Source of the DNA: an uncultured Chloroflexia bacterium | GTDB lineage: Bacteria; Chloroflexota; Ktedonobacteria; Ktedonobacterales; JADMIN01 | Direction: 5' to 3' | Length of the DNA stretch: 32,000 bases | NCBI GenBank assembly: GCA_963718915.1 | Contig: CAVRAI010000014.1 | Location: 210,001-242,000 of the forward strand | Shown here: in pieces, positions 1 to 21,819 of the stretch | Position numbering within the stretch: the stretch's first letter is position 1 | Layout of the letters: each line of letters opens with the position of its first letter | Translations under genes and position numbers: made by a program | The notes under the pieces: generated by a model | Database searches by the model: none | Seen by the model: the letters and a program-made list of their open reading frames with translations, nothing else | Told to the model about the DNA's origin: nothing

Positions 1-1266
1 GCCATCAGTCAGGCGACCGATACGCTGCTGCGCATCGAGGATGTGGTGGGCAAGCAACTAGTCTCCACGCGGCTGGCGGGCAATGTCATCGTCGAGGAGG
101 ATCAGGCGGCGGCGGCGCTCGAAGTGATGAGCCGGTTCGCGCTCGATCCGCGCTGGCTGATCTATCTGCCGCCGACGATGTCGCCCAGCGAGACATCACG
201 CCAGCCGGAATGGCTCGAATATCCCTCGGAGGCGTTCGGATACTTCCGTGGTCAGGGTGTGCCGCGCGTGGTCTGCGAGGAAAAGCACATGGGTAGCCGT
301 GCCGTGGTCGTGCTCTGCCGCGATCTGGCGACCGCCGCGCGCCGCTTCGGCGTCAGCGATAGCGCCGCCCCCGGCGCGTGCTACACCCGCACAGGCCGCC
401 GCTTCTTCGACGACGACGCGCTCGATACCGTATTCATCACCCGGCTCTCGCATGCGCTCACCACCGCTGGATTCTGGGAGCGTTTCAATACCGATTGGGT
501 CTGTCTGGATGCCGAATTGCTGCCGTGGAGCGCCAAGGCGCAGGGGCTGCTGCGCGAGCAATATGCGCCCAGTTGCCGCCGCTGGGCAGGCCGCGCTGGC
601 AATGGCGCTAGCCTCCGCCGAGTCGGCGCTGGCGCAGACCGCCGGAGTGAGCGGCGCTCATCGAGCGGCTGCGCGCCCGCCAGGAGAATATCGCGCGCTA
701 TGCCGACGCCTACCGCCGCTACTGCTGGGAGACGGACGGGCTGGATCGCGTGCGCCTCGCGCCATTTCATCTGCTCGCCACCGAGGGGCGCACCTACTTC
801 GACCGCGACCATCTCTGGCATATGCGCGAACTGGCGCAACTGGCGGAGGCCGATCCGCTCTTCCTCGCGACGAACTATCGCGCAGTCAACGTGCTGGACG
901 AGACGGAGTGCGCCGAGGCGGCGGCCTGGTGGGAGGCGGCGACCGATGCGAGCAGCGAAGGGATGGTCGTCAAGCCGCTCGACTTCATCGTCCGAGGCTC
1001 CCGTGGCCTCGTGCAGCCCGCGCTCAAGATTCGTGGCCGTGAATATCTGCGCATCATCTACGGGCCAGACTACACCGAGCCAGCCAACCTGGAGCGGCTG
1101 CGCCTGCGCGGGATTGCGCTTCAAGCGCGCACTGGCCGTCCGTGAGTTCGCCCTGGGTGTCGAGTCGCTGGAGCGCTTCATCCGCCGCGAGCCACTCTGG
1201 CGCGTGCACCAGGCGGTCTTCGCGGTGCTGGCGCTCGAATCGGAGCCGGTTGATCCGCGGCTGTGA
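1..1266 (+). pseudogene. pnkp: polynucleotide kinase-phosphatase (Pnkp) C-terminal ligase-like domain; 5'-partial at window edge, three +1 frameshifts
   Basis: Frame 1 is open from nt 1 and reads ...RVVCEEKHMGSRAVVVLCRD...WSAKAQGLLREQYAP. The sensible sequence continues in frame 2 (~570-655, VAAAGQAALAMALASAESALAQTAGVSGA). It then continues in frame 3 (~657-1112, LIERLRARQENIARYADAYRRYCWE...MVVKPLDF...IYGPDYTEPANLERLRLRG). It returns to frame 1 (~1114-1266, LRFKRALAVREFALGVESLERF...LALESEPVDPRL*). The EEKHMGSR motif and the ESEPVDPRL tail match my memory of bacterial Pnkp ligase domains. Confidence 0.6.
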
Positions 1267-3318: not shown

Positions 3319-3470
3319 GTGCCAGTGCATCTATGAGCTATCGCACAGTATTTCTGTGATGCTCACCGTAGGGCGAGACTTGACAAGCATGCAATCATAG
3401 CGTCATCGAATTATTGTGATTGCGTCGGTTCGGGATATGCGCCCGTGGGCAGCGCGTGCAGGGGTGGCTC

Positions 3471-3574
3471 GCCGCAGGCTAAAGCCCTGCGGCTAATCCT
3501 GACTCTCCAGGTCTCCTTATGCAAGGAAGGCCAGAACGGTGGCTCAGGGATTAGCCGTGGTCTTCAGGCCACGG
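3471..3574. repeat. two inverted hairpin units of dispersed repeat family A (GGATTAGCCG...)
   Basis: 3471-3499 is gccgcaggctaaagccctgcggctaatcc, the reverse complement of 7558-7586. 3548-3574 is ggattagccgtggtcttcaggccacgg. Both units are preceded by ggtggctc. Confidence 0.8.
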
Positions 3575-3700
3575 TGCGCGGCTTTGCCGCGCTGATGGGA
3601 TAGCTCTCCCGAACTGACGGGTTTTTGCGTTGAAACAGGATGATACCGGGAGGGGAGAAGATACCTGGTCATCTTGCAACGCGCCGTGAAAGGGCCTCCG

Positions 3701-4786
3701 ATGACGCACTTCTTCTTGTCATCATGGAAGCGACCCAGGACAGGACTCCTCATTCTTTGTCTCTCGTTGATGCTCGCCCTGGCTGCCTGTGGGAGCAGCA
3801 CGACACCAGGGACGGGCGATCTCACCGCTGGCGCGAATCCAACTGCTACCACCACCAGCGGAGGCAGCGGCTCGCCGACCGCGACAACCAGCACAGGTGG
3901 CGGCTCGCCCACCGCGACGCCATCGGGCAGCGGCACGCCGGATGCGGTGGCTCCGCCGTTCTTCTTTACCGTCCGCGCGACCGTCAGCAATAGTGTCGGT
4001 GACTACACCCTCATCGACAACGTCGTCACGAATGGCGACCCTGGCCTCGTCCTCTTCGTCACGGCGAACTACAACCCGAATGGCGCTGGCGGGGTCTATG
4101 ACAACCATCCGCTGGGGGTCTTTTACATCAGCGGAACCACCAACAAGTGGGCGATCTATCATGATGACAAGACACCCTACATCATCAATGCCAGCTACAA
4201 CGTCTGGGCACGTGAGACCAGCCAGCCCGGCACGTTCATCTGGCGCGCCAGCGCGGCCAACAGCGCGGGGGACTACACCATCATCGACAATCCCGCCACG
4301 AACGGCAACCCCAACGTCGTCATCCTGGTGACCCACAACTGGAATCCCGGCGGAGTCGCTGGCATCTACGAGAATCACCGGCTGGGCGTCTACTATATCG
4401 GGGGAACCACCAACAAGTGGGCGATCTACCATCAGGACACGACACCCTACACGCTCAACGCCAATTACAACGTCTACGCGACGGTCGCCGACGGCGCGAC
4501 GCGGTTCGTGGCGCACGCCTGCTCCGCGCCGTGTACCTACGACTACATCACATTCAGTAGCTCGGCGTCGAACAACAAGCCTGGCGCCATCGTCTTTGCC
4601 ACGGCGAACTGGAATCCCGGCGGCACGGGCGGCGTCTATGATGACCACAACCTGGGCGTCTTCTATTCCAGCGGCTACCTGCGCTGGGCGGTCTATCACC
4701 AGGATCAGGCGGCCTACATCGCCAACTCCTCCTTCAATGTGGTGATCCCGCAGACCGGGCGAGTGAGGGCAGACCTCACCCCCTAG
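3701..4786 (+). CDS. secreted lipoprotein with a Thr/Gly/Ser/Pro linker and three tandem ~83-aa repeats of an unnamed domain
   Basis: ATG at 3701 (the ORF track opens at TTG 3674). Signal peptide LLILCLSLMLALAAC has a lipobox-like LAAC. Three repeats carry GDYT.IDN..TNG.P..V..VT.NWNPGG..G.Y.NH.LGV.Y...T.KWAIYH.D...Y..N..YNV. Confidence 0.8.
   Translation: MTHFFLSSWKRPRTGLLILCLSLMLALAACGSSTTPGTGDLTAGANPTATTTSGGSGSPTATTSTGGGSPTATPSGSGTPDAVAPPFFFTVRATVSNSVGDYTLIDNVVTNGDPGLVLFVTANYNPNGAGGVYDNHPLGVFYISGTTNKWAIYHDDKTPYIINASYNVWARETSQPGTFIWRASAANSAGDYTIIDNPATNGNPNVVILVTHNWNPGGVAGIYENHRLGVYYIGGTTNKWAIYHQDTTPYTLNANYNVYATVADGATRFVAHACSAPCTYDYITFSSSASNNKPGAIVFATANWNPGGTGGVYDDHNLGVFYSSGYLRWAVYHQDQAAYIANSSFNVVIPQTGRVRADLTP
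3959..4747 (+). repeat. three tandem coding repeats (about 3959-4210, 4232-4480, 4499-4747) within the lipoprotein gene
   Basis: Repeats 1 and 2 share long near-identical nucleotide runs, e.g. accaccaacaagtgggcgatcta(t/c)cat. Repeat 3 is more diverged. Confidence 0.85.
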
Positions 4787-4811
4787 CCCCCTCTCCCACG
4801 AGGAGAGGGGG
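4787..4811 (+). terminator. perfect 10-bp G/C hairpin directly after the lipoprotein stop codon (no U-tract)
   Basis: CCCCCTCTCC (4787-4796), loop cacga, GGAGAGGGGG (4802-4811). Confidence 0.4.
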
Positions 4812-4843
4812 AACCAGACACCACACACGGACGCGGACTCCGG

Positions 4844-4957
4844 CTCTGGCTCCCCTCCCCGCGCCGGGGGCTGGTGCGCGAGCCGTCAGGCGAGAAGCGC
4901 GCGACGAGCGCGCGGAGCTCCAGCGGCCCGAAGGGCGGGGTTGGGGGAGAGGTCCGC
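4844..4957. repeat. dispersed repeat family C copy carrying a ~67-bp internal insertion
   Basis: ctctggctcccctccccgcgccgggg (4844-4869) and ggggttgggggagaggtccgc (4937-4957) are contiguous in the 48-bp copy at 7634-7681. Confidence 0.8.
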
Positions 4958-4963
4958 GCCACC

Positions 4964-4992
4964 TTGAATGCTATTGCCCCAGATGTTACACT
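4964..4992 (+). promoter_or_regulatory. sigma70-like promoter upstream of the TIR gene
   Basis: TTGAAT (4964-4969), 17-nt spacer, TACACT (4987-4992); 48 nt before the ATG at 5041. Confidence 0.4.
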
Positions 4993-5040
4993 GGCAGGGC
5001 AGCCGGACGGCATATATCTGTAGCACAGGGGTCGGCCATC

Positions 5041-5784
5041 ATGAGCGAGACGGATTCCTACAAAATCTTCATCTCCTATCGCCGCGACGACACTCAGGCG
5101 ACCGTTGACCACATCTATGACTGGCTGGTGCGCGCGTTTGCCCGCGAGCTAGGCGCCAAAGCCATCTTCAAAGACGTGGACGCGATTCCAGTGGGCTATG
5201 GCTTTCCTGGCGTGGTTGCCAGCAAGATGCGCCAGTGTCGCGTGGCGCTGATTGTGATTGGCCCCTCCTGGACAACGCTGCTCTCGCATGATGATCCCTA
5301 CACGGGGCAGCCGCGTCTCAACGACCCGGCCGATAACGTGCGTGTCGAGGTGGAGCAGGCGCTGGTGTTGGCCCCGATGAACGAAGCGGGGGAGCCTGCC
5401 AGTCAGCTCCTCCTGATTCCGGTGCTGGTGCAGGGCGCACGCATGCCCCGCGCGGAACAGTTGCCCGAGAGTCTTCGTCCACTGACCCTGCGCAACGGCA
5501 CGCCGATTCGTCCTGACCCCGACTTCGCGCACGATACCTGGCGGCTTATCACGCGGATGGCGGACTGGATGGGCGTGACCGCTGACGACCCGCGTGGTGG
5601 ACATGTCACGCCGCCCGTCGTCACGCCTCCGCCATCGTCTCCAACGCCCGCCGATCCGATAGCCGACCTGCTGGCGCGCTTCCTGCCACAGCTGCGCGCC
5701 GCCTTCGACGCGCAAGACTGGCCGCAGGTGGCGCGGCTGGCCGCCTTCATCCAGCGCAGCGTCCCTGCCGAGCGGCTGCCCTAA
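5041..5784 (+). CDS. TIR domain protein; an intact ORF that is the N-terminal fragment of a disrupted TIR-TPR-FGE gene
   Basis: YKIFISYRRDD start motif, then ...CRVALIVIGPSW... and NVRVEVEQAL (candidate catalytic Glu region), then a Pro-rich linker. The stop at 5782 follows a CCC run. Deleting one C gives ...ERLPNEVYAMQGRALMAERDYAGA, continuous with the next ORF. Confidence 0.8.
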   Translation: MSETDSYKIFISYRRDDTQATVDHIYDWLVRAFARELGAKAIFKDVDAIPVGYGFPGVVASKMRQCRVALIVIGPSWTTLLSHDDPYTGQPRLNDPADNVRVEVEQALVLAPMNEAGEPASQLLLIPVLVQGARMPRAEQLPESLRPLTLRNGTPIRPDPDFAHDTWRLITRMADWMGVTADDPRGGHVTPPVVTPPPSSPTPADPIADLLARFLPQLRAAFDAQDWPQVARLAAFIQRSVPAERLP

Positions 5785-5785
5785 C

Positions 5786-6455
5786 GAGGTCTACGCGATG
5801 CAGGGGCGGGCGCTGATGGCCGAGCGCGACTATGCCGGAGCAAAGACCGCCTGGGATACCGTGCGGCAACGTGACCCACTCGATGTCGTGGCGCTACGTG
5901 CCGCCGCCGATGCCCGCATCGCGCTAGGCGAGAAGGTCGCACGCCCTGCCGCTGCTCGACGACGCGCTCACGCTCACATCAGATCGCGCTCAGCGGCTGG
6001 CGTTACTGCGTATCTACGCCAGCGTGCTCGCCGATGTCGCCCGCGCCGAGCAGGGAAGAACGCTGCCAGCGCCCAATCCCACTGGACGACGCTGCTCCGG
6101 GTGGCCAATGAGGGGCTGACCCTGGCGGGAGAGGGTGACCCGGGCTGGCAGACGACGAGGCTGGAGGCGCTCGCTGGGCTGGGACGCGACGGTGAGGCGC
6201 TGGAGGTGGCCCGCGTGCTAACCGCCCGGCAGGACGCCACCGCCGCGCTCTGGCTGACCCGCGCCCGACTGGCGTGGAAGCTGGCGGGCGAGATCGCCCA
6301 CCGACGAGGTGCGCGCCGCCCTCGACGCCGCCAGTCGCCTGGCGCCAAACGACCCGACCATCACCCAGGCGCGGCAGGAACTGCTGGTGATCCTCAAGCC
6401 TGATCGCTTCCCGCCACGGCTGGCAGAGTTGGGGTTCACTGCTCAGGAAGCGTGA
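5786..6455 (+). pseudogene. TPR-like helical-repeat middle segment of the disrupted TIR gene
   Basis: Sensible sequence hops frames. Frame 2: MQGRALMAERDYAGAKTAWDTVRQRDPLDVVALRAAADARIALGEKV. Frame 3: HALPLLDDALTLTSDRAQRLALLRIYASVLADVARAEQG. Frame 2: WTTLLRVANEGLTLAGEGDPGWQTTRLEALAGLGRDGEALEVARVLTARQDATAALWLTRARLAWKLAGEI. Frame 3: PTDEVRAALDAASRLAPNDPTITQARQELLVILKPDRFPPRLAELGFTAQEA, then TGA at 6453. Confidence 0.65.
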
Positions 6456-7190
6456 GTGGCGTCAAGTTCATCCTACCCGCCGGTCTGCGCCGTGCCCGCG
6501 GGCGAGTTCCTCATGGGCAGCGATCCCAGACGCGGATAAGGATGCGCAGGCCAGCGAGCAGCCGCAGCATCGCGTCAATCTGGCCGCCTTCTCGATCGGC
6601 CGCTTCCCGGTGACGGTGGCCGAGTACGCCTGCTTCGTCGAGGCGACGCAGCAGCGCCAGCCAAATGATTGGCCGAACCAGATGCAGAAAGCTCGATCAT
6701 CCCGTCGTCTATGTCTCCTGGGATGACGCCGTCGCCTATGCCGCCTGGCTGGCGCGGACGACCGGGCAGCCCTGGCGCTTGCCGACCGAGGCGGAATGGG
6801 AGAAAGCGGCCCGGTGGGACCAGCGCGACGGGCGTCGCGCGTCTCTATCCCTGGGGTGATACGTTCGACCAGTCGCGTGCCAATACCAGCGAAAGCGGCA
6901 AGGGCGGCACAACCGCCATCGGCAGCTATCCGAGCGGGGCCAGCCCATACGGCGCGGAGGAGATGGCGGGCAACGTCTGGGAGTGGACGCACAGCCTCTA
7001 CAAACCGTATCCATACACTGTGAGTGATGGTCGTGAAATGGAGAATTCCACTGAGAATCGAGTGCTGCGTGGCGGTTCGTGGGGCGACGACCAGCAGTCG
7101 CGCGCGCGGCCTTCGCACGGCCTCAGGCCGGTCATCCTCGACATTGGTATCGTCTCGTTGTCGGCCTCGGCTGGTTCTAGTAGCCATTAA
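6456..7190 (+). pseudogene. FGE-sulfatase / SUMF1-type (C-type lectin fold) domain, frameshifted; C-terminal part of the disrupted TIR gene
   Basis: The following pieces lie in different frames: VPAGEFLMGSDP; [40 protein letters not shown]; [41 protein letters not shown]; LYPWGD...YGAEEMAGNVWEWTHS...RVLRGGSWGDDQQ. An alternative frame then gives ARAAFARPQAGHPRHWYRLVVGLGWF* (stop 7178-7180). Confidence 0.75.
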
Positions 7191-7260
7191 CTCTGGTTCT
7201 TGATTTCTCAATCACGCTCATGTAAGTGTATCGGGTATATCGTGCGGGTTTCTGGTTCTG

Positions 7261-7292
7261 TCCGCGCGAGCGCGGAAATTCGCGGATTTTTT
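7261..7292 (+). terminator. intrinsic terminator-like hairpin with T6 tract
   Basis: TCCGCG (7261-7266) pairs with CGCGGA (7281-7286), followed by TTTTTT (7287-7292). The loop can pair internally. Confidence 0.55.
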
Positions 7293-7342
7293 GTGAGCGC
7301 CGAGGGGTAGTTTGGAATCCCGTGCGTGTGAGAGGATGTCCT

Positions 7343-7447
7343 ATGGATGATGTCCCTGAAACACCATCACTCTATGATCGTCTCTGCTCCTTCGAGAATC
7401 TCCTGCCGTATCGCGCGCCGTTCGCGGCGATAGGTGCTGGCGGTTAA
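7343..7447 (+). pseudogene. N-terminal stub of a reverse transcriptase (DGR / retron-type), truncated after ~30 codons
   Basis: ATG at 7343 encodes MDDVPETPSLYDRLCSFENLLPYRAPFAAIGAGG*. The L(Y/W/F)(D/E)x(I/L)xSFENLLxAYR pattern matches RT N-termini I remember, e.g. Bordetella Brt ...LIDQITTWENLLDAYRK. The reading frame runs into repeat family B at 7447. Confidence 0.45.
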
Positions 7448-7681
7448 AACCGCGCCTGAAGGGCCTCGCTGCGCTCTGCCACGAAACCCGCCTGCGCGGA
7501 TTCCCAGAGCGTTGAGCTACTTTGGTGTCTGTCCATTGGGCGCTCCTGAGCGACTGGGATTAGCCGCAGGGCTTTAGCCTGCGGCGGGGACACCCAGAAT
7601 CGGGTTGCCTCTTCCCGCCTGCTCCGTTCGCATCTCTGGCTCCCCTCCCCGCGCCGGGGAGGGGTTGGGGGAGAGGTCCGC
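7447..7681. repeat. array of dispersed repeat units: family B (7447-7500), family A (7558-7586), family C (7634-7681)
   Basis: aaaccgcgcctgaagggcctcgc...aaacccgcctgcgcgg recurs at 8864-8926. ggattagccgcagggctttagcctgcggc recurs, inverted, at 3471-3499. ctctggctcccctccccgcgccggggaggggttgggggagaggtccgc recurs at 4844-4957. Confidence 0.85.
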
Positions 7682-7682
7682 C

Positions 7683-8126
7683 CTACTGGTCGAGCGTGGC
7701 GTTGACCGTGATCTCGACGTTGTTGCGCAGCGCGTTCGAGACGGGGCAGCCCTGCTCCGCTGTGGCCGCCGCAGCCGCGAATCCCGCCTGATCGAGACCA
7801 GGTACCTTGCCGTGGACATCGAGACGCACGGCGGTGATCTTCATCTTGCCGTCCACGCGATCCAGCGCGCAGGTCGCCGTCACGTTTAGTTGCTCCGGTG
7901 GCGTGCCCGCGCCGTTGAGCGTATTCGAGAAGGCCATCGCATAGCATGAGGCATGCGCCGCCGCGATCAACTCTTCGGGGCTTGTCCGCCCATTGGGGTC
8001 TTCGGTGCGTGACGCCCAGGTGACGGGCAGTGTGCCGAAGGCCCCGCTTCCCGGAGTCACCGTCCCGCTCCCCTGGATCAAGTTTCCCTGCCAGACCACT
8101 TCCGCCCTGCGTTCCGCGACTGCCAT
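7683..8126 (-). CDS. osmC: OsmC family peroxiredoxin
   Basis: Start at MAVAERRAEVVWQGNL (ATG complement at 8124-8126, AGGA upstream). Contains TSPEELIAAAHASCYAMAF and AEQGCPVSNAL, which aligns well with E. coli OsmC from memory. Confidence 0.85.
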   Translation of the reverse strand: MAVAERRAEVVWQGNLIQGSGTVTPGSGAFGTLPVTWASRTEDPNGRTSPEELIAAAHASCYAMAFSNTLNGAGTPPEQLNVTATCALDRVDGKMKITAVRLDVHGKVPGLDQAGFAAAAATAEQGCPVSNALRNNVEITVNATLDQ

Positions 8127-8160
8127 GGTTGTTTTTCCTTTCACTTCACTGTGAAGTCTG

Positions 8161-8508
8161 CTAGGCGTGTGCTGTATAGAGTGTATCCGTTCGCGCCGCC
8201 AGAATGAAATCGTTGCGGTGCAGCCCGCCGATGGCATGCGTCCACCAGGAGACGGCGACTCGCCCCCACTCCGTCAGCAACGCCGGATGATGGCCTTCCT
8301 GCTCGGCCAGCGCGCCGACACGATTGGTAAAGTCCAGGGCGCTGGCAAAGTCGGGGAAGGTAAAGACGCGCATCAGCCGGGGAATGCCGCCCTGCTCGAC
8401 AATGCGCCATGTGGGGATCTGCTTCAGGTATTCCTGGCTATCCTCCTCGGATACCGTTGGTTCGCCAGCCCGACAGGCCACACACGTCATCTGCGCCAGT
8501 GGCTCCAT
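8161..8508 (-). CDS. pterin-4-alpha-carbinolamine dehydratase (PCD/DCoH family)
   Basis: Start at MEPLAQM with GGAGG upstream. Contains [61 protein letters not shown]. Confidence 0.85.
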
Positions 8509-8713
8509 CTTGCGCCTCCTTCTTCCCGTGCAACCCTCCAGGGCAACGTAGCTTCCAGTGCAGAACGTAGCACAGAGCGGGCCGGAAAGGCGATGGGGGC
8601 GCGTGGCGGTATGGGGAGAGGTTCTGGCGGAAGATGCCTGGGGATGCAGGCCGAAGCGTGTTGTCGGGTAATCCATGAAATGGGTCTGGCAGAGGGAGCG
8701 CGGGCGGTTACTG

Positions 8714-8787
8714 TCGTTATAGGATGTGCGACGGACACGGGCATTGCGGTGGGGCGAGCAGACCGGAGCGTTCACGCTACGGCGAAT
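8714..8787 (+). repeat. dispersed repeat family D, copy 1
   Basis: tcgttataggatgtgcgacggacacgggcattgcggtggggcgagcagaccggagcgttcacgctacggcgaat matches 18921-18993 with about 8 differences over 74 nt. Confidence 0.85.
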
Positions 8788-8863
8788 TTCCTGGCCCCAT
8801 TTGCTGGCAGGCTCCGGCGCGCTCGCCTCAGCACACTGTACGGCGTTACTGCTAAAACTACAT

Positions 8864-9025
8864 AAACCGCGCCTGAAGGGCCTCGCCTGCTGCGCACGCT
8901 CCGCCACAAAACCCGCCTGCGCGGGTTGCAGAGGCTCGCTCGCCAGTCAGGTACGCCGTTGGGGGCAGGATCTGGGGAGTCCGCGTCGGCGGACTTCGTG
9001 GCCGCAGGCCCTCAAGGTGCGGTTT
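8864..9025. mobile_element. MITE-like ~162-bp element with imperfect 19-bp terminal inverted repeats (family B left end)
   Basis: Left end aaaccgcgcctgaagggcc (8864-8882). Right end ggccctcaaggtgcggttt (9007-9025), whose reverse complement aaaccgcaccttgagggcc matches 16/19. No coding capacity. Confidence 0.6.
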
Positions 9026-9143
9026 TAACCGCCCGCGTACCCGCGCGGTGTCCCTGGTATTCTGTAAAACCACATCAGTCGCCAGCGTCCGTGGAAAATA
9101 CGAGAGGGGCGGTGATCTACCGCCCCAACAAGTATTTATGTGG

Positions 9144-9634: not shown

Positions 9635-12304
9635 ATGCCATCTCGATCATCCCAGCCACCCAAAACATCCACCGGATCACCACCAGACGATGCGCCCGAC
9701 GCCTCGGGGCGCGAGCACGCCCGTCCGGACGACGCCCTGAGCGACATCGATATCGCGCGCCTCTATCAGGACGCCCTTGCGGGTGCGCTCAAACTCGTCG
9801 GCGCCGACGGTGGCGAGCTGGCAATGCTCGATCCCCAGCGCCGGGTGATGGCCGTCCGCGCGCGTCTGCGGGGTGAGCCGGGCGCGTCTGGCAGTGGCTC
9901 GGCATTCGGCGCGCCCGCGCGCTCATCGCAGCCCCTCGCGTATAGCAGCGTCCGCTACGATCCATCACGCGCGCCCGCGCCACAGCCCGCCGATGACGAT
10001 CCTGAGTTGGGCGAGCAGCCGACTGTCCTGCTTGCGGCGATCCCCACCGCGCGTGTCTACCGTCAGAGTGAGGGGCTGGTAGGCGCCGTCTGGCAGCGCG
10101 CCGATGTCATTGTGTTACGCGGCGAGGAATTTCGCGTGCTCGCCCACGGCACTGGCGCTCCCGGCGCCGAGGCGCACTGGCATGTCGGGGTGCCAATCTA
10201 CCGCCCCGGCGCGCTTGATGTCATTCCGCCAATTGGGAACAACGGCGACATCATCGGGGTGCTTGCGGTCTATTCGGATGGGTCGCGTGGGTTCAGCGCG
10301 CGTGATGTCGAGATGCTCCGTCTGCATGCCGACCGGGTAAGCCGTCACCTGCGCATCGCCGAGCTGGCGCGCCAGGGCCAGAGCCAGAGCGAGTTGCTTG
10401 AGGTGCTCTGGAGCGACACGCAGGACCTGCCCGCGCTGTACCAGCGGATTCGCGATCTCGTGCGTCATCTGATCGATGCGCCGTCATTTGGGCTGATTCT
10501 CTACAATGCCCAGACGAGGGAGGCGACGCTCGAGGTCGCCGAGCGTGATGGAACGCCAATTGCCCCGCCTGCCCGCCGCGCCTCGACGCTGCCCGCCTGG
10601 TGGAATGCGGTGGGCGCCGGTCAGGTAGTGCGTAGCATCAGCGCAGAGGAACGCGCCGCCCATCCCGAATTCAGCCAGTTGGGCTGGGGCGACGATATGC
10701 CGGTAGTCTCACTGCTGGCGGCGCCGCTCATCAGTGGCCAGAAGTTCCTGGGAGCGCTGGTGGTCGCCAGCCCACAGGCGGAGGCATATAGCCCTGAGCA
10801 GGCGCAACTGTTCGAGTCCATCGCGCGCGCGGGCGCGGTCGTGCTGGAGAACACGCGGCTGGCGTTTGAGACGCGCGACAACGCCGCCCGTAATCAGGCG
10901 AAGGCGTACCAGATGGCCGCCCTCAACAATGCGGCCCTGACCATCAATGCGTCCCTCGACCTCGGTACGACTGTGCAGGCGCTGGCCGATCAGGCGTCAC
11001 ATCTGGCGACCGCCGAAATCTGCTCGGTCTTCCTCCTCAATGAGGAGCGTACTCACCTGGTGATGAGCGCCACCAGTCTTCCTCGCGATCCGCAGGCGCC
11101 ACCGCCGATACCCACCCAGGCGCCACTGACTTGGCATGATGTGGGTCAGGTCCTCAAGAGCGGGCAGTTTAGCGTCATGGATCACCTTGACGAGGACTGG
11201 GAGGACGCCACCATTATCGGGGGTCTGCTGAGAGAATATCAGGTCTATAGCGGACTCCTTGTGCCGATTGCGCATCGCGCCGCCGACAGCAGGCAACCGG
11301 GAACCTCAGGCACGTTTAGCAGCGAAGGGCCACAGGAGCGTGATGAGCTGCTTGGCGCGCTCTTTGTCTTTACGCCTGGTCAGCGCCACCACTTCTGGCC
11401 GACGGAAATCGGGCTGTTACAGGGGTTGGCCAGCCAGGCGGGCGCCGCCATCAGCAATGCCCGGCTCTACCAGAATCTCAAAGACGCGAAGGAAGGGCTG
11501 GAAGAGGTGGATAGGCTCAAGAATGACTTCATCCTGACCATCTCGCATGAGTTTCGCACCCCGCTCACGACGATCAATGGCTACATCAGCCTGATTACGC
11601 GCCACGGCGAGAAGCTGGAGCCGGAGAAGTTGAACCAGTTTGGCGGCGAGATTCAGCTGGCCACCGATAAGCTGGCGGGGATGATTGGCATGCTGGCGGA
11701 TGCGAGTATGCTGGAGGAGCGCGGGCTGGATGTGCATATCGAGCCGGTGAGCCTGCGGGCGATGGCGGAGCGGGCAGTGGCGGGGCTGACCGAAGACCTC
11801 AAGGGGCGCATCGCGATCGATATTCCAGCGGATATGTGGGTGCTGGCGGATGCCGAGCGCCTGCCGATGGTCATCTCGAACCTGCTGACGAACGCGGGCA
11901 AGTATGCGCCTGGCTCTCCCTATCGCCTGGCCGTGCGGCGCGAGCAGCGCGAGCGGTTGCAGCAGAAGGGCAGGCTGGTTGGCAGGAAGGAAGCGGATGG
12001 CAAAGACGCCCGCAACAACGAGACGGTTACGCGTACCATCCGCGCCCACGAACAGTGGCTGGTGGCCCATGTGATAGATTCTGGCCCGGGAGTTGCCAGC
12101 GAGGAGCTGGATCGTATCTTCGCCCGGTTTGTACGCACCCCCCAGTCGCTCACCACTCCCGTGCGCGGGACAGGCCTGGGGTTGTGGATTTGCCGCGAGT
12201 ATATCGAGGCGATGGGCGGTAATATCTGGGTCGAGAGTTCCATTGGCAGCGGCTCAGACTTCCAGTTCTGCCTACCAGAGACCGCGCCTCCACAGACGCC
12301 CTGA
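9635..12304 (+). CDS. cytoplasmic multi-GAF sensor histidine kinase
   Basis: 889 aa with no obvious TM segment. GAF-like blocks (e.g. GVLAVYSDGSRGFSARDVEMLRLHADRV and LGALVVASPQAEAYSPEQAQLFESIA). H-box DRLKNDFILTISHEFRTPLTTINGY. ATP-lid GTGLGLWICREYIEAMGGNIWVES. Confidence 0.9.
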   Translation: MPSRSSQPPKTSTGSPPDDAPDASGREHARPDDALSDIDIARLYQDALAGALKLVGADGGELAMLDPQRRVMAVRARLRGEPGASGSGSAFGAPARSSQPLAYSSVRYDPSRAPAPQPADDDPELGEQPTVLLAAIPTARVYRQSEGLVGAVWQRADVIVLRGEEFRVLAHGTGAPGAEAHWHVGVPIYRPGALDVIPPIGNNGDIIGVLAVYSDGSRGFSARDVEMLRLHADRVSRHLRIAELARQGQSQSELLEVLWSDTQDLPALYQRIRDLVRHLIDAPSFGLILYNAQTREATLEVAERDGTPIAPPARRASTLPAWWNAVGAGQVVRSISAEERAAHPEFSQLGWGDDMPVVSLLAAPLISGQKFLGALVVASPQAEAYSPEQAQLFESIARAGAVVLENTRLAFETRDNAARNQAKAYQMAALNNAALTINASLDLGTTVQALADQASHLATAEICSVFLLNEERTHLVMSATSLPRDPQAPPPIPTQAPLTWHDVGQVLKSGQFSVMDHLDEDWEDATIIGGLLREYQVYSGLLVPIAHRAADSRQPGTSGTFSSEGPQERDELLGALFVFTPGQRHHFWPTEIGLLQGLASQAGAAISNARLYQNLKDAKEGLEEVDRLKNDFILTISHEFRTPLTTINGYISLITRHGEKLEPEKLNQFGGEIQLATDKLAGMIGMLADASMLEERGLDVHIEPVSLRAMAERAVAGLTEDLKGRIAIDIPADMWVLADAERLPMVISNLLTNAGKYAPGSPYRLAVRREQRERLQQKGRLVGRKEADGKDARNNETVTRTIRAHEQWLVAHVIDSGPGVASEELDRIFARFVRTPQSLTTPVRGTGLGLWICREYIEAMGGNIWVESSIGSGSDFQFCLPETAPPQTP

Positions 12305-12439
12305 TATTTGCCTGGCACGCTATACTGAAGCAGGGCGCTGAAACGCGAGCGGATGATGTCGCCGCCGCTTCAGCGGGAGAGACGCGCGTACTCATAACGC
12401 ATATATGCAGCACACGTGTATAGAGAAAGAGGATGACGC

Positions 12440-12808
12440 ATGCCACACGCGCCAACAGTATTGATCGTGGATGACGACCCAGCGATCCGCAAGTTGCTGG
12501 TCGAGGTGCTATCGCTGGAGGGCTATCCGACGGAAACAGCAGTCAATGGGCGCGAGGCGCTGGACCTGATAGCACGCGGTGGCGCGCGGGTGATCCTGCT
12601 CGACTTGATGATGCCTGTACTGGATGGCCGTGGTGTGATGACGGAGCTACAGGCCAATCCAGCGGAGCGTGGCCGCCACAAGGTGATTCTGGTGTCAGCG
12701 ATCGGCTTTCTGGAAGGCGCGCGCGACCTGGAGGCGGATGGCGTGCTGGCCAAACCGTTTACGGTTGAGCAACTGTTGAATGTGCTGGAAACGGCCACCA
12801 CGCCCTAA
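12440..12808 (+). CDS. single-domain response regulator (CheY-like receiver)
   Basis: VLIVDDDPAIRKLL...VILLDLMMPVLDG...VILVSA...KPF; 122 aa with no output domain. Confidence 0.9.
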   Translation: MPHAPTVLIVDDDPAIRKLLVEVLSLEGYPTETAVNGREALDLIARGGARVILLDLMMPVLDGRGVMTELQANPAERGRHKVILVSAIGFLEGARDLEADGVLAKPFTVEQLLNVLETATTP

Positions 12809-12859
12809 GTTCTCCCGTACCGCGTGCTGGGGGCGCGCCTGCCGGAAGCCCAAAGGCCC

Positions 12860-13083
12860 CGGCGAATGGGCCTGAGTGGCGGAAATTCGCCGTAGCATTT
12901 ATGCTACGGTCTGCCTCGCCCGCCGCCACGCGCGGGGTTCGGAGGAATCAGTGAACGTTCATCAGGCTCCGGCGAATCCAGCTATCTTGTCCATTCGCCG
13001 GAGCGTTGACGCTCCGGCTTGCCTATCCACCAGCGACCCAGCCTGATTCGTATCAGACGTAGCATGGTAGCATGGTAGCATGA
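12860..13083. repeat. cluster of hairpins and palindromes between convergent genes, ending in (TAGCATGG)x3
   Basis: CGGCGAAT (12860-12867) pairs with ATTCGCCG (12885-12892). GTAGCAT-tt-ATGCTAC at 12892-12907. TGAACGTTCA at 12952-12961. CTCCGGCGAAT (12967-12977) pairs with ATTCGCCGGAG (12993-13003). 8-bp tandem repeat x3 at 13060-13083. Confidence 0.75.
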
Positions 13084-13090
13084 GCCGAGG

Positions 13091-14038
13091 TTAATCCGCG
13101 TCGACGATCATTGGATTGCGGATAATCGGCGCTTTGCCAGTCCGCGAGCTGATCGATGGCGCACCGCCGCCACCGCCGCCACCGCCGAAGCCGCCCGCGC
13201 GTGGCGCCTGGGGCTGTTCGCCTGATTCGACCATAATCATGCCCTGGCGTAGCATATCGAGGTCGCGCAGGAAGCATGCGACCGCGCTGGCCGCCGAGCC
13301 TTTCGACTGGGAATTATCGTAGCGGCGCGCGGTATTATCGGGGGCGTTTGGGCCTGCTGCGCTGAAGGAATCGGTATAGATCTGTTCCCAGCCGTTCCAG
13401 CGTCCGCGCAGTGGTTTCCAGCCGAGCTGGCTGTCGCTGACCGCGCGCCACTTCTCCTCGGTGAAGGCCATCCAGTCTTCGATCAGCCGCGAGTAGGTGG
13501 CGAGCATGTCGCGCAATTCCTCGGAGCGCTCATCCAGCCGCATGCTTGGCACACCGCCGCGCCCGTAGTCATCATACTCACCATAATCGTCCTGCCCATA
13601 GCCGGGGCCGAGCGCTCCCTGGCCGTAGCCGGGGGCATATCCCCCCGCCAGACCCATGCCACCATAGGCAAGCTGGCCCTCGTGCAGCGAGCCATCCTCC
13701 GTGGTGAACATATCTGGGCGCAGGCCGCCGATGATGATTTCCTCGGTGCCCATCGCATCCATCAGCCGCCATGCCAGCCGGGGATGGCGCATGGCCCAGA
13801 GTCCCTTGCGCATAAGGTAGACGAACGAGAAGGCGAAATTCACGAGCAGCCAGATGGCGCCTTTGACCGCGATCCAGTTCAGCAGGCCAAACAGCGCCCA
13901 TTCAGTCGGCGTGGCGTTTGAGCTGCCTTTCTCGATCACCGTCAGGATGATGGCGACGAGCAAGCTTGGGTCACGAATGGGATTAATCAGACCAAAAAGA
14001 CGGGAGCCAAATCCTCGTTTCCGCTCGCCGTTCGCCAT
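13091..14038 (-). CDS. hypothetical membrane protein with a Gly/Tyr-rich low-complexity centre and poly-Gly tail
   Basis: 315-aa ORF. Hydrophobic segments LLVAIILTVI and GAIWLLVNFAFSFVYL. Low-complexity AYGGMGLAGGYAPGYGQGALGPGYGQDDYGEYDDYGRGG, and later GGFGGGGGGGGAP. No family recognised. Confidence 0.65.
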   Translation of the reverse strand: MANGERKRGFGSRLFGLINPIRDPSLLVAIILTVIEKGSSNATPTEWALFGLLNWIAVKGAIWLLVNFAFSFVYLMRKGLWAMRHPRLAWRLMDAMGTEEIIIGGLRPDMFTTEDGSLHEGQLAYGGMGLAGGYAPGYGQGALGPGYGQDDYGEYDDYGRGGVPSMRLDERSEELRDMLATYSRLIEDWMAFTEEKWRAVSDSQLGWKPLRGRWNGWEQIYTDSFSAAGPNAPDNTARRYDNSQSKGSAASAVACFLRDLDMLRQGMIMVESGEQPQAPRAGGFGGGGGGGGAPSISSRTGKAPIIRNPMIVDAD

Positions 14039-14394
14039 TGCGTTCTCCCTCTGCTCTCACGCGCTATTCTGTGCCAAGCCGATAACACCGTTCACCGTGA
14101 GGCGAACTATCGGCCGTTCTCAAGACGTTATCGAGACTATCGAGACATGCCGCCGTTGCCGTGTGGAATGTGGATGGCTGAGGCGACCGTGTTTGTCCTG
14201 GCAAGTTCAGTATCACCGAGTTCTCAAAGCAGGCTATCTCACCAGCGAAAAGCGTCAGGCCAGTGCGGTGCGAAATGCCCAAAGACTATTTTCACACAGC
14301 GGTGTGAAACCAGCAATGACACTAGGCCATTCATACCGCCCTCCGTGTATAAAACGTCCGCAGTGGGTGAATCGCTCAGTGGCATGTCGCGCTC

Positions 14395-15069
14395 TCAGCG
14401 TGGCGCGGCGCCATCGAGAAAGAAGCGCGCCACCTGGATTGCTACCTGGCGATGCTCGTCGGGCGTGCGCGCGCTGTGGCCTCCCTGCGCGGTGAAGGCG
14501 TCGAGCAGACCGAACCAGGCGCGCACAAGGAAATCGGCGTTGCCCTCCGCGATCGCGCCCAGGCGCATACCGTCGCGCATGAGTTGGGCGATGGGCGCCA
14601 GCATCTCGCGCGCATAGGTCTCGTGAACGCGCCGCCCGTGGGAGGCGCCCAGCAACTCGGTGGCGTCGCGCAGCATCGGCTCCATCGTCGCGTCGGCATA
14701 CTGAAAGTAGCCCGCGGCCAGGTCTTCCAAGCGTTGCCGCGCGGTGGCGTCCGCCTCTGTTACCGAGCGAATGTAGCCGCCAACCTCCCGCATCAGGTCG
14801 CAGAGCACATCGGCATAGAGGCCTTCTTTATCGCCGAAGTGATAGTAAAGTGTTGGCTTGGTGACACCCGCCGCGCGGGCCACCTCGCCGACGGCCACAT
14901 CGGCGAAACCACGTTGTATGAAGAGGCGACGTGCCGCCGTCAGAATCAATGTGCGTGTCTCCACCTCAGCGATGGGCGCGTCATTAGTGGGACGTCCGGG
15001 GCGACGGCGCGCGGCGCTGGCCACCGCTCCGGGTAGGCTGGGCGCTGGAATCTCGTTGTTTTCTAACAT
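14395..15069 (-). CDS. TetR/AcrR family transcriptional regulator
   Basis: HTH region ILTAARRLFIQRGFADVAVGEVARAAGVTKPTLYYHFGDKEGLY. Divergent from the oxidase gene. Confidence 0.9.
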   Translation of the reverse strand: MLENNEIPAPSLPGAVASAARRRPGRPTNDAPIAEVETRTLILTAARRLFIQRGFADVAVGEVARAAGVTKPTLYYHFGDKEGLYADVLCDLMREVGGYIRSVTEADATARQRLEDLAAGYFQYADATMEPMLRDATELLGASHGRRVHETYAREMLAPIAQLMRDGMRLGAIAEGNADFLVRAWFGLLDAFTAQGGHSARTPDEHRQVAIQVARFFLDGAAPR

Positions 15070-15147
15070 GGTTTCCTGACTTCATGCCAGGGGCGGGCAT
15101 GCGCGCGGTCGGTTCGTCGGGAACGGTTCGCCGCTCCTTCTGTCGAG

Positions 15148-15161
15148 AATAGTATACAATT
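15148..15161. promoter_or_regulatory. 14-bp near-palindrome AATAGTATACAATT, a candidate TetR operator
   Basis: 12/14 self-complementary, centred on GTATAC. Lies in the 136-bp divergent intergenic region, 45 nt before the oxidase GTG. Confidence 0.35.
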
Positions 15162-15205
15162 GCCTCAGGCGGCATGCTATTGAGCGCAAGATCGGAGGCC
15201 TGGGC

Positions 15206-16285
15206 GTGGAGCCTATCAATATCGCCGAGTATGAGGAACTGGCCGCTGAACGGCTGGCGCCGATCACCTGGGACTATTACCGTGGCGGCAGCGATGACGA
15301 GCAGACGCTCCGTGCCAATCGCGACGCATTCGGGCGCATCAAGCTGCGGCCGCGGGTGCTGGTGGACGTGAGCCGGATAGCGCTTGGGACGACCGTGCTG
15401 GGAATCACATTGCCTACCCCGTTGCTGGTCGCGCCGACGGCTTATCATGGGCTGGCGCACCCCGAGGGCGAGTGCGAGACGGCGCGCGGCGCGGGCGCGG
15501 CTGGTTCGCTGATGGTTGCGAGCACGATGTCAAACCGGTCGCTGGAGGAGGTTGTCGAAGCGGCAACCTGCCCGCTCTGGTTCCAGCTCTACGTCTATCG
15601 CGACCGCCAGGTGACAGAGCAGCTCGTGCGCCGGGCGGAGGCCGCGGGCTATCGCGCGCTCGTGCTGACGGTGGATACCGCGCGGCTTGGTCGGCGCGAA
15701 CGCGATATCCGCAATGGATTTGGTCTGCCACCGCATCTGCACATGGGTAATTTCGAGGGCGCTGCCCACGAACAGCCTGGTCAGGAGCCAGGTCTTTCCG
15801 GCCTCGCGGTCTATGCGAATGCGCTGCTGGATAGCTCGCTGACCTGGGAGGCGCTCGACTGGCTGCGCTCGATCACGACGCTGCCCATCGTCGTCAAGGG
15901 TATCCTGACGGCGGAAGACGCGAAGCTGGCGGTGGAGCATGGCGCGCGGGGAATCATTGTCTCGAATCACGGCGGGCGTCAACTTGATAGCGGGATGGCG
16001 ACCATCGAGGCGCTTCCCGAAGTGGTCGCGGCGGCGCATGGAGGCGCGGAGGTCTATCTAGATGGCGGTATCCGCCGGGGAACGGATGCGCTCAAGGCGC
16101 TCTCGCTCGGCGCGCGGGCGGTGCTGCTAGGCCGACCGATCCTCTGGGGGCTGGCGGTCAGCGGGGAGCAGGGAGTCGCCCGCGTCCTGGAGTTGCTCAA
16201 CGCCGAACTGGAGATGGCGATGGCGCTTGTGGGCAGCCCCTCGCTGGCCGCGCTCGGCCCGGAGTTGGTGCGCCTGCCAGTATAG
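15206..16285 (+). CDS. FMN-dependent alpha-hydroxy-acid oxidase/dehydrogenase (glycolate oxidase / L-lactate oxidase family)
   Basis: GTG start with GGAGG 8 nt upstream. N-terminus INIAEYEELAAERL...WDYYRGGSDDEQTLRANRDAF. Also LWFQLYVYRDR, IVVKGI, IIVSNHGGRQLD and LDGGIRRGTD. Confidence 0.9.
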   Translation: MEPINIAEYEELAAERLAPITWDYYRGGSDDEQTLRANRDAFGRIKLRPRVLVDVSRIALGTTVLGITLPTPLLVAPTAYHGLAHPEGECETARGAGAAGSLMVASTMSNRSLEEVVEAATCPLWFQLYVYRDRQVTEQLVRRAEAAGYRALVLTVDTARLGRRERDIRNGFGLPPHLHMGNFEGAAHEQPGQEPGLSGLAVYANALLDSSLTWEALDWLRSITTLPIVVKGILTAEDAKLAVEHGARGIIVSNHGGRQLDSGMATIEALPEVVAAAHGGAEVYLDGGIRRGTDALKALSLGARAVLLGRPILWGLAVSGEQGVARVLELLNAELEMAMALVGSPSLAALGPELVRLPV

Positions 16286-18853: not shown

Positions 18854-18920
18854 ACGCGAATGAGGCGATCCCGGCCTTGACGCAGCTCTGCTAATAGTGA
18901 TGGCTATCTCGGCCTTGATG

Positions 18921-18993
18921 TCGTTTTAGCATGTGCGATGGACACGGGCATTGCGGTGGGGTGAGCAGGCCGGAGCGTGAACGCTACGCGAAT
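18921..18993 (+). repeat. dispersed repeat family D, copy 2
   Basis: tcgttttagcatgtgcgatggacacgggcattgcggtggggtgagcaggccggagcgtgaacgctacgcgaat. See copy 1 at 8714-8787. Confidence 0.85.
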
Positions 18994-20586: not shown

Positions 20587-20610
20587 CATATCCGCGATGT
20601 CGCTCGTCCG

Positions 20611-20976
20611 CTAAGATGCTGATGCGTTGTCGCTGGCTGCCACAATCGTGTAGACGCGGCGGAGCGCGAGCGTATGGGCCTCGTCGCGAGTCGCATACAG
20701 CAGATAGTCGCCAGCGCTGTTATAAGGTTTGGGGCCAGACTTCGTGCCTTCTGGCTGGGGAGCAATGCGTTCCTTGATTTCGGCGAAAAAGCCAGTCGCG
20801 ATTTGCACCCACTGATTTTTGGCCGCATTCCAGGATTCGCATATCCCTGGATAGATACCGATCGTGAAGTCGCGCCCACCCTGATGCTGAAGATGCCATA
20901 TCACCGGAACCGTAGCAGGTCCCTTCGCCCTCCGAATGCGTGTATCAGAAGCGTTGTTGGTCATGATAGTATCCAT
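20611..20976 (-). CDS. hypothetical protein
   Basis: 121-aa ORF at the start of a lower-GC stretch. No motif recognised. Confidence 0.4.
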   Translation of the reverse strand: MDTIMTNNASDTRIRRAKGPATVPVIWHLQHQGGRDFTIGIYPGICESWNAAKNQWVQIATGFFAEIKERIAPQPEGTKSGPKPYNSAGDYLLYATRDEAHTLALRRVYTIVAASDNASAS

Positions 20977-21062
20977 CCTGTCTGATGTTAGAAACGCGCG
21001 AAACGCGAATTTCTATGTGGTCTACGTAACGTTGCTATCTGCGAAGCTGTTGGGCGATCCGC

Positions 21063-21515: not shown

Positions 21516-21579
21516 TTATTGGCGTCTGGTGCGTCGAGCCGCTGGCAAAGTTGCAGGAACTTTTTCGATGCAGTACCCA

Positions 21580-21682
21580 GAGTATAGCATAAGGCAAGGC
21601 AATGGGCGCGCGAGCATGCCGTTCACTCGCGCCCCAACTGGATGAACTGCTGGAGCTTCAGCAGAAGTACGCGGAGCTATAG
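21580..21682 (+). pseudogene. degenerate 3'-end fragment of a second rph-like gene
   Basis: ...EYSIRQGNGRASMPFTRA then (one extra C) QLDELLELQQKYAEL*. Compare rph ...[43 protein letters not shown]. Nucleotide similarity continues past the stop (tagg..gctatggt in both copies). Confidence 0.65.
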
Positions 21683-21819
21683 GCGGCTATGGTAGATTAT
21701 GGTGTAGTTGCTTCACTGCTTGCACGACACATCAGCGCGAGTTCCGCACATTGGATGCTGTCTTCGAGCGGAGACTTCTCATCTCTGAAAGTAGGTCTAC
21801 CGTGAGCGCCATCACGGCG

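Follow-up and report, generated by a model that had tools for sequence, protein, structure and literature searches.

Conflict systems of multicellular bacteria include DGR-diversified sensors with a C-type-lectin/FGE ('FGS') domain (Dore et al. 2024, PMC10907252; Kaur et al. 2020, PMC7159879). These sensors combine a C-terminal FGE-type lectin carrying a DGR variable region with N-terminal effectors including TIR, and their filamentous or multicellular hosts include Chloroflexi. The Ktedonobacterales family described here shares these features, and in its closest homologous locus (L085) a reverse transcriptase (RT) and Avd lie beside the target. The published sensors usually hold a central STAND/NACHT NTPase or are part of vWA-MoxR ternary systems. 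In this family, TIR and lectin are linked by a TPR superhelix alone, with no NTPase domain detected by Pfam in the protein studied or its homologues, and the copy studied here stands without its DGR. In TvpA and Mtd, too, the variable region (VR) lies at the C-terminus of a lectin-fold domain terminating in a 'GFRLV'-type motif, and adenine-specific TR-to-VR changes are found in L085. TvpA and Mtd differ in being binding proteins of the surface or the tail fibre that lack a TIR effector. The FGE part of our structural model has a pLDDT below 50. SUMF1/FGE and EgtB share Pfam family PF03781 with the present proteins; unlike SUMF1/FGE, the family studied here is hypervariable after the 'RGGSW' motif, a segment that lacks Cys in our copy and in most homologues. 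The TIR domain resembles that of SARM1, differing in its bacterial context and the absence of ARM and SAM domains.

The window analysed is a 32-kb stretch of an uncultured Chloroflexia bacterium of the order Ktedonobacterales. Positions 5041-7190 are, judged from sequence, one gene of a sensor-effector family that combines a SARM1-like TIR domain, a TPR superhelix and an FGE-type C-type-lectin domain. Three-frame translation reads this gene only via the successive frames 0, 1, 2, 1, 2, 1, 2, 0, 1 and 2, and the frame-hopped reading is supported by frameshift-aware alignment to the intact homologues P0001, P0002, P0003 and P0005, as well as by DNA alignment to four homologous genes. Overall, we assign a probability of about 0.6 to the reading that this is a real DGR-family TIR-TPR-lectin gene on a 2.9-kb strain-specific segment, broken by consensus errors of the assembly. 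The gene and its upstream element are organized as follows.

4964-4992, plus strand: promoter-like element, TTGAAT (4964-4969), 17-nt spacer with TG (4984-4985), TACACT (4987-4992)
5041-5784, plus strand: intact 247-aa open reading frame with TIR domain (aa 1 to ~175), Pro-rich linker and first helix of the TPR region; profile and fold match
5347-5349, plus strand: codon of Glu103, invariant in 19 family sequences and aligned with the Glu of SARM1 'HKEI'
5785-6479, plus strand: TPR-like helical region in frames 1, 2, 1, 2, 1; sub-threshold TPR_16 match (18.8 bits), homologues with TPR Pfam matches
6480-7090, plus strand: core of the FGE-sulfatase/C-type-lectin-fold domain (PF03781) in frames 2, 0, 1, 2
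7075-7190, plus strand: VR-homologous region with about four small deletions, by alignment to the VR and TR of L085; ancestral stop TAA at 7188-7190

The repaired protein of ~710 aa scores 1022 bits against P0001 (69% identity over 97% of the length) and 177 bits against the Pfam FGE-sulfatase model; the collinear multi-frame reading is therefore beyond chance. A single protein of this size had been proposed from frame hopping in an earlier, sequence-only reading, and translation and both kinds of alignment bear it out. Ktedonobacterales contain at least six full-length TIR-helical-FGE proteins, each encoded by a single ORF and 696-719 aa long, with 57-69% identity to the repaired protein over 96-99% of its length. 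Further searches were less productive: a contig scan with the repaired protein yielded no close orthologue, its 'MAGNVWEW' pattern pulling in generic FGE domains, and a metagenome scan with the TIR and TPR part gave no match. Using the neighbouring AMP-binding protein, the best metagenome match reached 67% identity, and no near-identical locus appeared in three collection scans.

The 247-aa TIR reading frame is unbroken, as had been noted before. Its match to TIR_2 (26.7 bits, E=8.5e-6) falls just under the cut-off of 28, so that of the domains anticipated in the repaired translation the TIR domain is recovered only below threshold, whereas the FGE-sulfatase domain stands clearly above it. A family TIR profile built from 19 sequences, however, aligns with the SARM1 TIR over the whole domain (E=3e-12), and a homologue fold matches it in Foldseek with a TMt of 0.80 and an rmsd of 3.5 Å. 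Glu103 coincides with the 'HKEI' Glu, the catalytic residue of SARM1. The TIR domain thus appears to be of the SARM1-like NADase type, by TIR model match and conserved Glu, with NADase activity being predicted from sequence and fold. The TTGAAT-17-TACACT promoter proposed for this ORF belongs to an element that is conserved upstream of five homologous genes, where the alignment columns CTTG...GATG.TACACTG.C.G.GCAGCC are invariant; a consensus promoter scan missed it, as it agrees with the consensus at just 8 of 12 positions.

For the central region, the AlphaFold model of P0001 displays 13 helices at a pLDDT of ~90, whose best Foldseek matches are consensus-TPR and OGT TPR superhelices (E ~3e-6). 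The model thus points to a TPR-like scaffold of paired antiparallel helices, in support of the TPR-like repeats suggested previously. PF03781 rises above cut-off only after frame repair (E=7e-52, profile positions 5-239 of 255), and sequence matches of the FGE domain in the PDB comprise ToxD, EgtB and FGE (E=1e-19 to 7e-32). The two catalytic Cys that FGE carries in the segment following 'RGGSW' are missing from the tail of the window protein. As this segment is hypervariable and free of Cys, the FGE-type domain is predicted to be a binding module rather than a formylglycine-generating enzyme.

The last ~40 residues of the family's C-terminal lectin domain are a DGR variable region. Beyond GGSW, the family tail is 40% identical, compared with 71% in the core. 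In L085, the target gene is followed by RVT_1, bAvd and TR, and VR and TR are 84% identical, with all 21 mismatches located at TR adenines. Such a DGR target had been thought unusual for this architecture; L085 is instead a textbook case, and lectin/FGE sensors that are diversified by DGRs and carry TIR effectors have been published (PMC10907252, PMC7159879). Downstream of the window copy, little of this cassette is left.

7343-7447, plus strand: stub of a DGR reverse transcriptase, N-terminal ~30 codons, 'SLYDRLCSFENL-LPY/RAVRGDR'
7436-7655, unstranded: stack of dispersed REP-like repeats (families I3, I4, D3, D15, I11) in place of the remaining RT, Avd and TR

The stub is the best match in the window of an RT N-terminal profile, and its frameshift-aware score against the N-terminus of the L012 RT is 58, compared with 28.9 +/- 3.4 for shuffles (z = 8.5); a big-database search with the stub peptide returned no candidates. 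Beyond these codons, neither RT nor Avd was detected in the 32 kb by profile search (no RVT_1 or Avd match) or by tblastn with the L085 proteins, nor was any TR-like repeat, and a sensitive blastn search of the window with the VR gave no match. RT-like motifs on the minus strand at ~25.4 kb ('LRE*TYHPG', 'VV*HAQCRFI') were considered as a second RT remnant and discarded (z <= 2.1). Hence, within the 32 kb the window copy has no cognate TR, RT or Avd, in contrast to L085 with its TR, and since only the stub remains, the copy has truly lost its own DGR machinery and its variable region is probably frozen.

Lesions within the gene were mapped by frameshift-aware alignment and by DNA alignment of the window to L081, L083, L085 and L086. 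Nine or ten frame-breaking lesions lie between 5782 and 6830 on the plus strand, and further ones at the end of the variable region.

5782, plus strand: insertion of T, creating the TAA at 5782-5784 that ends the TIR ORF
~5941, plus strand: +1
~6057, plus strand: net -1/+2
~6294, plus strand: +1
~6453-6457, plus strand: +2, GCG[T]GAG[T]
~6475, plus strand: +1
~6534, plus strand: +1
~6687, plus strand: +1
~6830, plus strand: +1
~7097, ~7114, ~7157 and ~7183, plus strand: variable-region deletions of 1, 2, 1 and 5 nt, by alignment to the VR and TR of L085

All break sites named before (~5781, ~5939, ~6050-6075, ~6293, ~6528, ~6690, ~6832 and ~7095) were recovered, at 5782, ~5941, ~6057, ~6294, ~6534, ~6687, ~6830 and ~7097, respectively. 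Their number was nevertheless underestimated: instead of about 8 frameshifts, 13-14 frame-breaking indels are present in 1.4 kb. The TGA at 6453, formerly counted as a stop, is a by-product of two additional shifts (+2, then +1), as homologues read frame 1 ('GVKFI') from ~6453 to ~6476, and no in-frame stop is left after repair. Similarly, about four deletions replace the single optional -1 shift supposed near ~7095. Upstream of the VR, nine or ten lesions are insertions, mostly of single bases, and at least five of them cannot be homopolymer slippage. In a GC3 phase plot the phase walks stepwise through the TIR-FGE gene; for detecting frameshifts without homologues the plot proved too noisy in this genome, with flips in proven-intact genes too.

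Comparison with the syntenic relative L168 places the whole locus on a segment missing there, and lesions of the same type recur elsewhere in the window.

4767-7655, unstranded: 2.9-kb segment with the whole locus, missing from L168 (blastn)
571-1113, plus strand: further cluster of such lesions, in the unrelated PNKP ligase gene (43-1266), single-base insertions at 571, 651 and 1113

By blastn, L168 positions 13144-14281 correspond to 3621-4766 of the window and 14316-15287 to 7656-8630, so that DUF7452 and OsmC are joined by 34 nt where the window holds the segment. The three extra bases in PNKP ligase are missing in both L168 and L169, and their deletion turns a PNKP_ligase match of 313.5 bits in 2 stretches into one of 588.2 bits in a single stretch (1-377 of 377). 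Sister assemblies named 'contig_N' contain clustered 1-nt indels that break conserved genes: PLDc and Hen1 of L168 are split in this way, both being intact in L169, and 20 indels separate L171 from L081 over 5.8 kb. The 'contig_N'-named assemblies in our contig scan are Microflora Danica MAGs, which derive from Nanopore-only data assembled with Flye and polished by one Medaka round (PMC12313526). In the window, eight other genes (~8 kb) showed no frameshift relative to their orthologues, and errors would therefore need a patchy distribution.

A pseudogene should combine a disrupted frame with relaxed constraint, visible as lost residues, a longer branch or in-frame stops; the frame is disrupted here, but signs of relaxed constraint are missing. 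Of 220 columns without variation among six intact homologues, 217 are retained in the repaired protein, whereas intact proteins keep 84-94% of invariant columns in the same leave-one-out test. It is also the member closest to every other one, with the shortest branch of the family and the highest identity to all homologues. In bacterial mutation-accumulation studies, substitutions outnumber indels roughly tenfold, so that ~100 substitutions and ~20 lost invariant residues would be expected alongside thirteen neutral indels. Moreover, untemplated insertions away from homopolymers are rare as natural mutations, and PNKP as well as conserved genes of sister assemblies carry the same lesions. The old pseudogene with a surviving TIR ORF envisaged by the sequence-only reading accordingly fits poorly. 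A true pseudogene, in which the DGR cassette was lost, the T at 5782 truncated the gene to a 247-aa TIR product that is still expressed from the conserved promoter, and the untranslated 1.4 kb downstream accumulated indels, is nonetheless the main competitor, about half as probable as the reading we prefer. The lesion patch spares the 741-nt TIR ORF with its catalytic Glu, where ~7 indels would be expected at the downstream rate (an estimate from lesion counts), and begins exactly at the domain boundary with a stop, which is exactly what selection on a TIR-only product predicts. The promoter motif is conserved, and the segment is missing in the closest syntenic relative, hence dispensable; with the RT cut to a stub and both Avd and TR lost, the target may plausibly have come under relaxed selection. 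Insertions also dominate here, whereas L168 mixes insertions and deletions, which speaks against errors. If the indels were real, an unusual mutational process with untemplated single-base insertions would have affected TIR-TPR-FGE and PNKP, both dispensable, without accompanying substitutions, and a promoter-driven, sensor-less SARM1-like TIR protein would then have been kept by selection after DGR loss as a free effector or decoy, a scenario that we regard as improbable.

Somewhat less credible still is a mixed case, a heterogeneous population at a strain-variable locus where some lesions, such as those in the VR including the 5-nt deletion, are real alleles and others collapsed ones. Between L081 and L171, identity is only 81% in the homologous gene but 96.5% in its flanks, so that this locus changes rapidly from strain to strain, and four-base 'codons' resemble two alleles side by side (ATCG as ATG plus ACG, both occurring in homologues; AAAG, GGGC and CCCT similarly). 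Such doubled third codon positions are, however, expected for about two-thirds of random insertions, so the merging of alleles is not significant, and PNKP carries the same lesions without being strain-variable. We give almost no weight to programmed recoding by ribosomal frameshifting or transcriptional slippage at each shift: conservation of all segments and the lack of in-frame stops after repair would suit it, yet ~13 sites in both shift directions would be needed without a shared slippery motif, intact homologues need none, and no recoding on such a scale is known from bacteria. Equally negligible is an arrangement of the TIR, helical and FGE parts as separate adjacent genes. Gene callers gave separate ORFs, and P0121 (247 aa) and P0122 (201 aa) are separate protein entries, but this is refuted by the full-length single-ORF homologues in at least six assemblies, with which the segments are collinear, and by the lack of start or stop signals at the junctions; the single gene proposed earlier thus holds. 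We conclude that the indels are most likely consensus errors of long-read metagenome assembly, a platform we infer, and not evolutionary decay. On this reading the full-length protein is probably still encoded in the organism, and a single spurious T at 5782 probably accounts for the 247-aa TIR-only ORF.

In intact members of the family, the diversified lectin tip may bind a foreign or non-kin ligand, and the TPR scaffold could couple this binding to self-association, whereupon clustered TIR domains would hydrolyse NAD+ or make a signal. The window copy has lost its own DGR machinery, probably leaving a frozen variable region, and its indels most likely stem from consensus errors. Patches of single-base insertions in high-GC long-read MAGs can look like pseudogenes with many frameshifts, and they can also go unnoticed where an ORF remains open, as in PNKP; gene decay claimed from such assemblies calls for a substitution-level check or read support. 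With this locus, a Ktedonobacterales TIR-TPR-lectin family joins the published DGR-diversified conflict sensors, and the window copy represents one family member stranded without its retroelement. Should the indels be real, a sensor-less TIR effector kept once the DGR was lost would usefully serve as a natural experiment on how TIR is regulated.

Translation of the TIR-TPR-FGE gene (window 5041-7190, + strand) yields an unbroken 247-aa ORF at 5041-5784, 3' of which a sensible protein is obtained only via frame changes. Lesions were mapped with a frameshift-allowing dynamic programme comparing four intact homologues with the window DNA, and again by aligning the window DNA to four homologous genes. 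Both methods agree on the sites at 5782-6830, which are specific to the window copy when compared with intact homologues, and the kind and positions of the indels in the assembled sequence are thereby established.

Lesions in the TIR-TPR-FGE gene (all + strand; 5782-6830, both alignments; ~7097-7183, 3'-end alignment versus homologue variable region)
5782: +1, inserted T, creating the TAA that ends the TIR ORF
~5941: +1
~6057: net -1 or +2
~6294: +1
~6453-6457: +2
~6475: +1
~6534: +1
~6687: +1
~6830: +1
~7097: -1
~7114: -2
~7157: -1
~7183: -5

Beyond the last site, the frame rejoins the ancestral TAA at 7188-7190. The frameshift map of the sequence-only reading was thus essentially right, but the TGA at 6453, which it took for an in-frame nonsense codon, was a misreading: homologues read 'GVKFI' in frame 1 across 6453-6476, so that this stretch holds another two shifts and repair leaves no in-frame stop.

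The repaired protein, i.e. the conceptual translation with frameshifts mended, was matched by Pfam to FGE-sulfatase (E=7e-52), whereas TIR_2 stayed just below its cut-off (E=8.5e-6, 26.7 versus 28 bits) and TPR matches were weak. A 19-sequence profile of the TIR domain matches the TIR of the NAD+ hydrolase SARM1 over its whole length (E=3e-12), with the invariant Glu103 (nt 5347-5349) opposite the Glu of the SARM1 'HKEI' motif in the profile alignment. The AlphaFold model of the homologous protein P0001 is confident for the TIR and a 13-helix central domain (pLDDT ~90) and poor for the lectin part; Foldseek searches with this model returned TPR superhelices at the top and the SARM1 TIR at TMt 0.80, and the domain identities are established. 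The C-terminal part resembles ToxD, EgtB, and FGE in sequence, but lacks Cys at the positions of the FGE catalytic pair; it is hence a binding module rather than a formylglycine-generating enzyme. Among 5.8 billion proteins searched, full-length single-ORF relatives of 696-719 aa share 57-69% identity over 96-99% of the query, and all family relatives carrying a source name are labelled Ktedonobacterales. The TIR, helical, and FGE parts hence constitute one gene in relatives, as had been proposed for the ancestor, and separate genes for the three parts are effectively excluded, as is programmed recoding.

The window is chromosomal: dnaG and rpoD lie at 27.9-31.7 kb, and further housekeeping genes include those for RNase PH and a histidine kinase. 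A syntenic relative (L168, 88-90% nucleotide identity) shares the order PNKP, AMP-binding, DUF7452, OsmC, pterin dehydratase, GAF kinase, response regulator, TetR, and FMN dehydrogenase, with just 34 nt in place of window 4767-7655. The locus is therefore a 2.9-kb strain-specific segment, and it is bounded by REP-like palindromes. Intergenic regions are packed with short palindromic REP-like families (CCCCTCTCC...GGAGAGGGG then GGGGTGAGGT, plus others), copies of which also lie beside the homologous genes at loci L081, L083, and L085.

REP-like repeats in the window
3470-3499 / 7557-7586: pair
4772-4818: single
4852-4882 / 7634-7664: pair
4933-4962 / 7657-7686: pair
7436-7466 / 9006-9036: pair
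7472-7502 / 8897-8927: pair
8712-8791 / 12881-12934 / 18919-18988: trio

The upstream DUF7452 gene (3674-4786, +) encodes a protein with three repeats inside it (232-nt direct repeat 3974-4205 / 4244-4475, 72% identity); its N-terminal stretch is rich in Thr/Gly/Ser/Pro and takes in a 33-nt tandem repeat at 3851-3916. Between AMP-binding and DUF7452, L168 carries a DDE_3 transposase gene (11873-13060) missing at window 3322-3332, and the window has ~330 nt of repeat-rich excess over L168 in the pterin dehydratase-GAF kinase gap (8631-9089). At 8161-8907, the called 248-aa ORF probably extends too far, the gene proper being ~115 aa long. Window 20600-22200 has a GC content of 53.5% versus ~63% and three small ORFs (121, 150, and 146 aa) without Pfam match. 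Within the ~80 nt 5' of the TIR-TPR-FGE start codon, TTGAAT-17-(TG)TACACT and a GGCAGGGCAGCC box are invariant in five homologous loci; this conserved motif, although not called by a simple consensus promoter scan, supports the promoter predicted earlier.

Downstream of the target gene at the locus of the closest homologue (L085) come RVT_1, then bAvd, and then 129 nt that repeat the target's 3' end. This template repeat and the variable region differ at 21 positions, every one of them a template adenine, the hallmark of a DGR, which establishes adenine-specific diversification in this homologue. Family-wide identity is 71% in the domain core but 40% in the tail after 'GGSW'. The visible flanks of four other homologous loci (P0002, P0003, P0005, P0006/P0012) contain no RT, as expected for remote DGR targets. 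In the 32-kb window, RT, Avd, and template repeat are lost, apart from an RT-like stub at 7343-7447 (+), 153 nt 3' of the gene. This short ORF opens with 'SLYDRLCSFENLLPYRA', followed after a shift by 'RAVRGDR'; its 'SLYDRLCSFENL-LPYRA' matches DGR RT N-termini, scoring 58 versus 28.9 +/- 3.4 in shuffles. It ends ~30 codons in, at dispersed REP-like repeats that occupy 7436-7655, and is a relic of the locus's own retroelement, removed by deletion. The DGR of the strain-specific segment that carries the window copy is dead. A collinear motif pair at 25394-25461 (-), 'LRE*TYHPG' and 'VV*HAQCRFI' with a stop in each, is probably a chance resemblance to RT (z <= 2.1 versus shuffles).

Does the broken frame reflect decay? 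Neutral DNA accumulates substitutions ~10x as often as indels in mutation-accumulation studies, so that 13 indels should be accompanied by several stops and ~20 lost invariant residues. Neither these nor other substitution-level decay is seen in the repaired window protein, which retains 217 of the 220 positions (98.6%) invariant in six intact homologues, compared with 84-94% for intact homologues in the same leave-one-out test. For every other member of the family set, the window protein is the closest relative, and it hence sits on the shortest branch. Nearly all lesions 5' of the variable region are single-base insertions, at least five of which cannot be homopolymer slippage (e.g. CCC[T]AAC, GC[A]CGC, GAGA[T]CGCC), an unusual natural spectrum. 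In a comparison of ten window ORFs with orthologues (nine credible genes and the doubtful hyp165), the conserved PNKP (RNA repair) ligase gene (43-1266, +) displayed similar insertions at 571, 651, and 1113, missing in both syntenic relatives. The high-GC ORF remains open and so masks them, although 571-1113 is read out of frame. Without the three bases, the PNKP_ligase match climbs from 313.5 bits over two stretches to 588.2 bits over a single one (1-377 of 377), and the repaired protein is 92% identical to its orthologue, on par with intact neighbours.

Sister assemblies behave alike. Clustered 1-nt indels split PLDc and Hen1 in L168 (1-950, 4700-5230), both unbroken in L169, an independent MAG. 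The assembly L171 differs from the related L081 by 20 one-base indels over 5.8 kb of flank (96.5% identity), again in clusters and for the most part away from homopolymers; its molybdopterin dehydrogenase and FAD-binding subunit genes (5790-5880, 6660-6890) are split but full-length in L081. The TIR-TPR-FGE gene itself is only ~81% identical between the two (L081 399-2522, L171 629-2646; flanking genes 96.5%), suggesting allelic replacement or very fast gene evolution between strains. The split conserved genes have 'contig_N'-named ENA/NCBI assemblies as their common source; those among the genome-scan matches are Microflora Danica MAGs, built by Flye from Nanopore reads alone with a single Medaka polishing round (PMC12313526), and we infer that the window stems from the same project. 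A true pseudogene, the earlier interpretation, would fit the genuine loss of the DGR machinery and a lesion patch that spares the entire TIR ORF and opens with a stop at a domain boundary; moreover, the eight other compared genes are frameshift-free, so assembly errors would need to be patchy. Weighed against the retained residues, the absence of in-frame stops, and the similar lesions in PNKP and sister assemblies, decay appears unlikely, and a mixed reading with a heterogeneous population highly improbable. The multi-frameshift appearance is thus most likely technical, and the main value of the finding is a caution about patches of insertion errors in high-GC long-read MAGs.

Lectin/FGE sensors that are diversified by a DGR and have TIR among their effectors have been published for multicellular bacteria, including filamentous Chloroflexi (PMC10907252; PMC7159879), so a DGR link, initially thought unusual, is expected here. 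The window family shares the TIR effector and FGE lectin with these sensors but has no NTPase. By analogy with this literature and SARM1-type TIR biology, the diversified lectin tip may sense a ligand, the TPR domain may mediate assembly or autoinhibition, and clustering of TIR domains would trigger NAD+ depletion or signalling. The gene is real and adds to this known sensor class a Ktedonobacterales TIR-TPR-lectin architecture without NTPase.
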